In this document: positions 6,001-9,000 of the stretch, in pieces
Position numbering within the stretch: the stretch's first letter is position 1
Layout: every line of letters begins with the position of its first letter
Source of the DNA: a bacterium
GTDB taxonomy: Bacteria > Fidelibacterota > Marinisomatia > Marinisomatales > UBA1611
Assembly (NCBI GenBank): GCA_038127595.1
Contig: JAYPIC010000018.1
Coordinates: 1-13,642, forward strand
Length of the DNA stretch: 13,642 nucleotides
Direction of reading: 5' to 3'
Program-made: the position numbers

Positions 6001-9000
6001 TCGAACTTCAAAATCTGGGGGTTGAATATCTACAGACAAACCAGATTGAAAACGAGATAAAAGCCTATCTTGCAAACCCTGCATTTCACCTGGATATCGA
6101 TCTGCAGTTAAAACAATTTGTTTCCCTGATTGATACAACTCATTAAAGGTGTGGAAAAACTGCTCCTGTGTTTGCTCTTTACCTTTGAAAAACTGAATGT
6201 CATCTATTAGCAGGAGGTCGGCATTTCTATATTGTCTTGCAAACTCAACGGTTCTGTTTTTTCTTAGGCCATTTACAAAATCAAGGGTGAATTTTTCACT
6301 TGTGGCAATTACAATGCGCTTATCTGAAGAGGTTTCTAACACCCTATTACCTATTGCATGTAAAAGATGAGTTTTGCCCAAACCCGTCCCCCCATATATA
6401 ATGAGCGGGTTAAATGACTGCTTACCGGGGTTTTCTGCTACTGCTTCCGCAGCAGTTTTTGCAAATTGATTATTTGCCCCCTCAATAAATGTTTCAAAAA
6501 CATGGTCACTATTTAATACGGGAATTAAATGCGACTTTTTTGAAGGCGTCTGATCTTGTTGTTCTTTTTGATCTGGTATTTGAATTTCTGCAGAAATAAT
6601 GAACTTTGTTTTTACATCGCCCAAGCCCAGAGACTTAAGAACAAAATCAATATTCGACCGATAGTGCGACTCAATCCAATCATAAAAAAATTGACTAGGC
6701 ACCTCAAGCACAAACTCTTTGTGCTCCAAAGCAATTGGGTTTATCGGATCAAACCACGTACTTATTGTATGAGCTGGTAGTTTTTCTGAGAGCCCCTCTT
6801 TTACCCTTAACCAAGTATCTTTTACCATAATTAATATTTATCCACAAGTTATCCACATCCCCTTGAACTTTTAAATTACTTACTTTTTTTTAACACAACT
6901 AAGAAATTTTACTTTATTATAAAATTTATTTTACTTTTGGCATATATCTTCATATTTTGTATCTTTCTCGGCTTTTTAAAGTTTATATTATGAAAAGAAC
7001 ATATCAACCAAGTAAGCGCAAGCGTAAAAACAAGCATGGTTTCCGGTCTAGGATGAAAACCGTCGGGGGTAGGGCTGTTTTACGTAGAAGAAGAAAAAAA
7101 GGACGCAAGGTCTTAAGTGCATAATTGCGCTTAAAATTAAACGTTGCTTTACTTCTACGCTTATTTTCTAAAAAATTACTGTTTATAGTTTGTCCAACTT
7201 TGGACTCAACAATTCGGCTTATAAGGTTTTTATACAATTATGATGGATAGAAATACCCTTACTGCACTCCTGTTAATTACTGTAGTTTTAATAATCACTC
7301 CTTATTATATGGAGTTAATATCTCCAACGACTAAAGATACACAAGAGTATTTTGAAGATCAACAAAACACAGATGAAAGCGGTGTTATATATAAAAATTA
7401 TAATGAGGATATTTCCACGCCTTCTACCCCAACCATTCCTGTTTTTTCACAGAAAGAGGAAAAAACAATTGAAATTGAAAACGACTTGTTTATCGCCCGC
7501 ATTAGTTCTGTATATGGTGGCACAATTAGGTCTTTTAAGACAAAAGAGCACCTTAAAAATGACAGTAGTTTAGTAGAGCTTATTTCCCAAGAAAACAAGA
7601 ACAACTTAATTTTAAGTTATAAAGATTTTACCGGAGAAGACGTCATTATTGACGACGGGTGGGTACTGCAAGAAAAAGAAGATTCGTTTTTTATAACCTC
7701 AACAAAAACTTTTACATATATAAATGAATTTGAAAACAAGAAATTAATTAAAACACTTACTTTTTATCCCGACAAGTTTGTTATTGATATTGATATTGAT
7801 ATCACAGCAATGTCAAACAACATACTAGCAAACAACTTTTCTATAGAGTGGGTCGGGGGTATTCCGCCCACAGAAAAAGATAGTATCGCAGAAGCAGCAT
7901 ATTTCTACTCGTATCTTTACCAAGGCGGAGAACTATTAGATGTAAAGGTGGGCAGTGACGAAACTTTTAAAAACGATTATAAAGGCGCCACCGATTGGAT
8001 AGCAACGAGAAGTAAGTATTTTGTAGTGTGTATTTTAGATGATTCAAAAGAGCAGTTTGTTGGGTCAGCAATTTCCGCATCTTTTAAAGATAAGGAGCTA
8101 TATAATATCTCAGCTCAAATGAAGTCTGATAAAATAGCTAATATTTCTCTTTATTTGGGCCCACTGGAATATGAAAGGATAAAAAACCTAGGGGTTAATT
8201 TAGAGCTGGTCATGGATTTTGGGTGGGCGATTATTAGGCCTATATCTAAGTCTGTTTTGTGGGTTCTAAAGACAATGCACACAGTAATACCCAACTATGG
8301 TGTAATTCTTATTATTTTTTCTATTTTGGTTAAACTAATAGTTTATCCACTTACAAAGAGGAGCTATCAGTCAACCCAAGCAATGCAGTCCATACAACCT
8401 GAAGTAAATGCTTTAAGGGAAAAACACAAAAACAACCCAACGAAATTAAACCAAGCAACAATGGAGCTTTATAAAAAGAAAGGTGTAAACCCACTTGGAA
8501 CCTGTTTTCCAATGTTGTTGCAAATGCCTCTTTTATTTGCTTTATTCACGGTCTTTAGATCAACTATTGAGTTAAGGGGCGAACCATTTGTTTTTTGGAT
8601 AAAAGACCTATCTGCGCCAGACGTTCTTTTTTACTTGCCATTCAAGATACCACTATATGGCAACTATGTTTGCGCCTTACCTATATTGATGGCACTGTCG
8701 ATGTACGCGCAACAAAAAATGATGCAGCCAAATAATGCAACTGGGCCGCAAGCAGACCAACAAAAGATGATGCAATATTTTATGATGGGTTTTTTCTTTT
8801 TACTGTTTAATAGTTTTCCCTCTGGCTTAAACCTGTACTACACGCTTTTTAATATTTTAACAATAGCGCAACAAAAACTAACAAAGAACGAAAAAGCCGC
8901 TATAAAACCAATAAAAATGTAGTGCTAAGTGTTGTTTTTATTGTGTTTATAACTTACCATATATCTACACACTTTTTATAAATTAATTGGCGCTTTTAAC

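Follow-up and report, generated by a model that had tools for sequence, protein, structure and literature searches.

The canonical type A RNase P, exemplified by that of E. coli, joins M1 RNA to the protein C5 (RnpA). The closest precedent for an RNA that persists without this protein is Ca. Hodgkinia cicadicola, in which rnpB is reported to be present and expressed, rnpA is apparently lacking and tRNA 5' ends are processed; the authors suggest trimming by the RNA alone (PMC6581868). Eight insect endosymbionts have likewise been described as having no annotated rnpA (PMC7191817). The Aquificaceae, including Aquifex aeolicus, are reported to have lost rnpA from between rpmH and yidD, together with rnpB, and to use the protein-only enzyme HARP (PMC10941002). 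Fungal mitochondria, according to the source consulted, have an RNA-based RNase P devoid of an RnpA homologue, composed of a degenerate RPM1 RNA and Rpm2, a large unrelated protein (PMC4919922).

Bacteria known to lack RnpA rely on HARP or are very small endosymbionts, and the order Marinisomatales of the Fidelibacterota (SAR406/Marinimicrobia) fits neither description. It shares with Hodgkinia the presence of rnpB without rnpA, but Hodgkinia is a 0.14-Mb endosymbiont whose host may supply proteins, whereas the loss in the order spans 16 families of marine bacteria, which we take to be free-living, with genomes of 0.7-3.8 Mb. Like the Aquificaceae, the order has no rnpA behind rpmH; unlike them, it keeps rnpB (with an RF00010 match in 95 of 103 genomes, compared with 33 of 34 sisters) and has no HARP (PF08745 in 0 of 103 order genomes, with control matches in 5 of 14), as the first-pass annotation of this DNA had stated on both counts. 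The RNA of the order is complete, in contrast to the degenerate mitochondrial one, and the searches yielded no partner for it. Compared with the canonical type A enzyme, the order has an RNA that is alike, full length and equipped with all helices and core motifs; the differences are the missing RnpA gene, a P5 pair of its own and greater variability in J18/2, J19/4 and distal P4. No report of an rnpA-less RNase P in this phylum or in free-living bacteria was found, in agreement with the first pass, by a search that covered few subscription papers, and gene tables in genome surveys could record the absence; the order-wide loss is apparently unreported. The order poses a testable question, namely whether an RNase P ribozyme can serve a cell alone, and either answer would be informative, since it would bring to light an RNase P that naturally does without protein or else an RNase P protein of a new kind.

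The rpmH-yidC junction and the distribution of rnpA

The window, a 13,642-bp stretch of contig C18 of the studied genome, carries dnaA (5491..6828, minus strand; PF00308, PF08299, PF11638) in divergent orientation to rpmH, which marks this position as the ancestral locus near the origin. Two perfect DnaA boxes (6838..6857, plus strand) were found in the intergenic region between the two genes by a motif scan with the DnaA-box consensus, and likely mark oriC or dnaA control. The rpmH gene (6990..7124, plus strand) encodes ribosomal protein L34, with 44 amino acids and a stop codon in translation and a PF00468 match at E 1.1e-22. It is followed by a 115-bp spacer with 29% G+C (7125..7239) and by yidC (7240..8922, plus strand; PF02096, PF14849), so that rpmH indeed runs straight into yidC with the approximate distance first proposed. 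In sister families the gene order is rpmH-rnpA-yidD-yidC, and the spacer occupies the place of rnpA and yidD. At 115 bp it is too short for an RnpA of about 100-120 amino acids; none of the six frames across 6900-7300 contains an RnpA-sized reading frame, and the only ORFs of the spacer, 41 amino acids on the plus strand and 77 on the minus strand, have no Pfam match. The ancestral operon continues with mnmE (9421..10752, plus strand; PF10396, PF12631) and mnmG (10759..12609, plus strand; PF01134), and the window ends in the start of a gene with a UvrB-interaction domain.

Several further features of the region are of descriptive interest. The yidD gene is also missing from the rpmH site of the studied genome and has been relocated to C16:11798-12046 (minus strand), where it adjoins a HIT-family gene and cysS; in a weak tree its product forms a long branch apart from the other YidDs of the order, and the gene may have been reacquired. 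An AT-rich spacer of about 500 bp (8923-9420) separates yidC from mnmE. This interval is the position of jag in many bacteria; the 77-amino-acid ORF it contains in the studied genome has no Pfam match. In G071, a relative from another family of the order represented by a single 969,550-bp contig, mnmE nearly abuts yidC. Directly behind dnaA, window positions 3-5273 (minus strand) encode a secreted-looking protein of at least 1757 amino acids with lamin-tail, MAM and repeated Ig-like (DUF1573/ASH) domains. The dnaN gene is not adjacent to dnaA and lies about 11 kb further along C18.

The absence of rnpA extends well beyond this junction. With the order defined as families f1-f16, a comparison of 400 other genomes of the phylum at E<=0.01 gave PF00825 matches in 6 of 213 order genomes against 159 of 187 of the remainder. 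The studied genome (95.8% complete) has no match even at E<=10, while controls matched in 10 of 14 genomes. In G095 and G196 the match falls within the IF2 gene, and the best match in G380 is interrupted by two stops, which rules out all three as RnpA. A profile built from 38 sister RnpAs recovered 12 matches at E<=0.05 among 233 order genomes, four of them full-length and eight short (E 0.006-0.044); four of the short matches contain stops, and the remaining four fall within another gene or on the strand opposite one. Real RnpA is therefore present in 4 of 233 order genomes of all completeness levels, where the first-pass annotation had counted a single match, and all four genes reside on foreign contigs, three of SAR11 type and one from a sister family. 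The YidC and RnpA of G382:C11 are identical to proteins named Ca. Pelagibacter, the YidC of G389:C1 matches a protein named Alphaproteobacteria, and G416:C116 (25% G+C) clusters with these two contigs at support 100/99. The fourth, G243:C130, clusters with sister family f19 (support 97/92), and the same assembly additionally holds a native rpmH running into yidC. The order was not recovered as a single clade in the YidD tree (72 columns), which served only to place suspect contigs. The earlier suspicion that a match on a pfkB-queF-type contig was contamination stands, although the contig of this type that was found measures 4,390 bp rather than 2.6 kb. In G389:C1 (locus L041), SAR11-type genes give way near position 10,650 to genes 45-52% identical to those of the studied genome, and the contig looks chimeric.

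Gene order is equally uniform. The gene after rpmH is yidD or yidC at all 30 order loci considered, as in the first pass, and at all 11 further loci chosen for other families; rpmH is present in 77 of 80 dnaA loci and is followed by an RnpA match in none, one of these loci having only 129 nt downstream. The three sets overlap, and order membership is not confirmed for all 80 dnaA loci. By either hallmark of the canonical ribonucleoprotein enzyme, an rnpA recognised by PF00825, TIGR00188 or the RNR motif and its position directly after rpmH, the order stands apart. Same-class sisters with small genomes keep RnpA, so a small genome is not in itself enough to render the protein dispensable.

An assembly or binning artefact, with rnpA missing through genome incompleteness, would be conceivable for a data set made up of metagenome and single-cell assemblies in which four order genomes do carry an RnpA. 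We consider it largely refuted and barely credible: equally incomplete sisters show the gene in the proportion given above, single-contig order genomes lack it, the junction from rpmH to yidD or yidC is continuous at every one of the 30, 11 and 77 rpmH-bearing loci of the overlapping sets, and the four RnpA matches are all foreign. The first pass had raised the concern that RnpA is kept elsewhere in the genome, diverged beyond recognition. Sister RnpAs evolve fast (mean column identity of the alignment 28%), the protein is already shortened to about 100 amino acids in the same-class sister families f17-f20, and a highly diverged RnpA is described from Andalucia (PMC7050145). More sensitive searches accompanied by controls nonetheless found no candidate at the sequence level. 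An unfiltered HMM of 49 sister RnpAs reached a best E of 1.9 in 24,529 stop-to-stop ORFs of the studied genome and 0.78 in 12,840 ORFs of G071, against 1.5e-8 and 7.4e-7 for SAR11-type RnpA controls; when the whole class was removed from training, 31 of 31 held-out RnpAs were recovered at E<=0.01, the worst at E 1.8e-4. Comparison of 184 small basic ORFs of G071 by hhalign gave a best probability of 6.9%, with controls at 95-96%, and the earlier TIGR00188 result, 0 of 5 near-closed order genomes, was reproduced. A strict RNR-like motif occurs in 34 of the 49 sister RnpAs and in no ORF of the studied genome or G071, and no weak RnpA match recurs at one locus across the 233 order genomes. A concealed RnpA is accordingly unlikely, and we are highly confident that a recognisable rnpA has been lost across the order, as the first pass had claimed.

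Two groups of loci deserve mention for their local structure. The same-class sisters with the shortened RnpA (f17-f20; L017, L027, L030, L042-L054) also have a variant L34 N-terminus, and several of these loci sit behind queF rather than dnaA. In L062, L063, L075, L081, L439-L441 and L443 (f4, f8 and others), the stretch from rpmH to the YidD core is longer and often open in the YidD frame; it bears no similarity to RnpA and is possibly a remnant of the rnpA deletion.

The RNase P RNA and its substrates

The RNase P RNA gene of the studied genome lies outside the window, at C1:88878-89241, and matches RF00010 over its full length (model positions 1-367) with 279.6 bits against a gathering score of 100, in keeping with the intact type A RNA reported at these positions in the first pass. 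Helices P1-P18 are present at full length, which places the molecule in type A. The type A RNA of the order has remained under structural selection: 59 of 99 predicted pairs display two-sided changes among 10 order RNAs, and the catalytic-core motifs P4, J5/15 and L15 GGU are kept in 30. Near-identical contigs cover rnpB in four of four metatranscriptome runs of marine or aquatic origin, taken from four studies, such contigs being a sign of presence and not of transcription or its level. The read depth of these runs derives from contigs and takes in other organisms, and was left aside as a ranking of expression. Two RNase P RNA matches, G063:C6:153521-154091 (571 nt) and G228:C60:21982-22523 (542 nt), exceed the usual 340-450 nt, implying large insertions.

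Changes particular to the order are few. The 30 best-scoring order RNAs (10 families) were compared with 30 sister RNAs (14 families), and one P5 pair was found to be A-U in 30 of 30 order RNAs against U-A in the sisters, a compensatory flip. As the distal pair of P4, 28 of 30 order RNAs have G-C where all 30 sister RNAs have A-U. Since families f4, f8 and f9 of the order retain A-U at this position, the G-C pair arose after the loss of rnpA, and a stabilised P4 was rejected as the enabling change. Invariant columns number 116 in the order and 83 in the sisters, out of 331. No added RNA domain was found in the order RNAs, P9/L9 and the peripheral helices show no consistent difference from the sisters among the RNAs inspected by eye, and the neighbours of rnpB are identical in the two groups, with no order-specific gene adjoining.

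The positions that are more variable in the order lie mainly in a few junctions. Contacts of RnpA with the Geobacillus RNA are given in a cryo-EM preprint as A334, A336, U337, A387 and P2 (PMC13193133). Of the seven columns that are fixed in the sisters but variable in the order, five map to J18/2, the P2-P19 junction, J19/4 and P4. The named Geobacillus contacts presumably correspond to J18/2 and J19/4, with the RAAU bases of J18/2 probably among them. Half of the order RNAs (15 of 30) have a canonical J18/2, against 28 of 30 sister RNAs; the RAAU bases of this junction are invariant in the order. In a count over 261 genomes, J19/4 deviates from ACAGAA in 40 of 114 genomes of the order, spread over 11 of 16 families, against 11 of 126 others, and in 1 of 40 of the same class. 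Related genomes are not independent data points in this count, and a few of the pattern matches arise by chance. The J19/4 variant is also present in families f24 and f26, which bear RnpA. The variability of J18/2 and J19/4 is a weak sign of a lost protein contact.

In the features compared, the tRNA substrates resemble those of the sisters. U-1 was found in 19 of 23, 21 of 29, 23 of 30 and 18 of 29 tRNAs of four order genomes (62-83%) and in 20 of 27, 14 of 23 and 18 of 27 tRNAs of three sisters (61-74%); the comparison left out tRNA-His, tRNA-Sec and genes with no T-loop pattern, and used the best 30 tRNA loci in five of the seven genomes. Co-adaptation of tRNAs through more frequent U-1 or more encoded CCA was rejected, there being no difference from the sisters. 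Nearly all tRNA genes of the seven genomes encode C74 and few encode the full CCA, in order and sisters alike.

Candidate partners and the proposed mechanism

Searches for known alternatives to RnpA returned nothing further in five order genomes, either for Pop5/Rpp14 (PF01900, with control matches in four archaea) or for NYN (PF01936, control positive); PRORP (PF16953) was silent in the same number of order genomes, as were its controls. No candidate helper emerged among 120 small soluble basic ORFs of G071, nearly all of which are recognisable by eye and 30 of which were scanned with Pfam. Of 765 genes shared by G071 and the studied genome, 385 have no match in the sister, most of them housekeeping, the sister being covered by 739 kb of 1.5 Mb and scattered loci. 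A conserved 75-amino-acid basic protein was rejected as a helper on account of a 72% identical copy in an RnpA-bearing sister, and a helper gene beside rnpB was rejected because the neighbours are the same in both groups. The 75-amino-acid protein itself (L162:12071-12295, minus strand) contains an internal repeat and is 74% identical between G071 and the studied genome; it has no Pfam family over the cut-off, and its Atlas clusters are unnamed and include archaea.

Two accounts of tRNA maturation in the order compete with a ribozyme acting alone. If 5' ends were made without RNase P, by leaderless transcription or another nuclease, the RNA would be a relic or have another role. Leaderless tRNAs are described in Nanoarchaeum (PMC10941002), but the order differs from this way of life in keeping rnpB, with its helices and catalytic-core motifs conserved, and in having tandem tRNA genes with gaps of 3-18 nt. 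Of the 29 tRNA genes in the studied genome, 4 follow another tRNA gene at a distance of 3-59 nt, as do 6 of 34 in G071 at 3-64 nt. Each of the two genomes has five tRNA genes that begin with U or C, and each has tmRNA. Tandem genes and pyrimidine-starting tRNAs mean that 5' cleavage is still needed and that leaderless transcription is insufficient. As for another nuclease, RNase J is absent from all 111 genomes sampled from the phylum, of which 53 belong to the order, and HARP and NYN are missing as described above, making this account very improbable. A more serious contender is an unrelated protein, newly gained or an RNA-binding protein doing a second job, that associates specifically with the RNA and takes over the binding of the leader. 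The ordinary look of the RNA and tRNAs of the order would be easier to explain if something else replaced RnpA, the RAAU part of J18/2 is invariant, and Rpm2 of fungal mitochondria offers a precedent (PMC4919922). Against it stand the empty screen of the G071 ORFs, the lack of an order-specific gene beside rnpB and the occurrence of the best-conserved unknown protein in a sister that has RnpA. We regard such a partner as possible but doubtful.

The reading we favour is that the RNase P ribozyme of the order works without a dedicated protein subunit, a proposition on which our confidence is evenly balanced. The first pass had allowed for RNA alone or a non-homologous helper, and with the loss order-wide, rnpB kept and HARP missing, this would still be the best reading. 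The distribution of rnpA indicates that the ancestor of the order lost the gene from its rpmH operon, probably in a single event, and the sequence searches show that no known RNase P protein took the place of RnpA. The type A RNA would remain the catalyst that removes the 5' leaders of tRNA and tmRNA. A cryo-EM preprint describes RnpA as strengthening only one of six toeholds (PMC13193133), and the RNA itself would then hold five of the six substrate contacts. A slow-growing cell might tolerate the low turnover, aided by Mg2+, salt or polyamines, or by basic proteins that bind non-specifically. The main objection comes from biochemistry: RnpA is called essential in vivo, and cleavage by the RNA alone is reported as negligible at 4.5 mM Mg2+ (PMC9945441). 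Nothing in the RNA or the substrates of the order visibly offsets this objection. Only tentatively, and with somewhat less than even confidence, do we extend the favoured reading to the proposition that these are free-living marine bacteria maturing their tRNAs in vivo with a protein-free ribozyme at physiological Mg2+ and with few core substitutions, the first such case outside host-dependent endosymbionts.

Genetics of the E. coli rnpA49 allele point to loss of RNase R as a suppressor (PMC11251521). Such a role was rejected for the order: 41 of 88 order genomes, the studied one among them, have RNase R, and the enzyme is mostly or wholly missing from two families that bear RnpA (present in 1 of 10 genomes of f17 and 0 of 5 of f19). 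Its loss is patchy within the class, and the enzyme is kept in 46 of 46 genomes of other classes.
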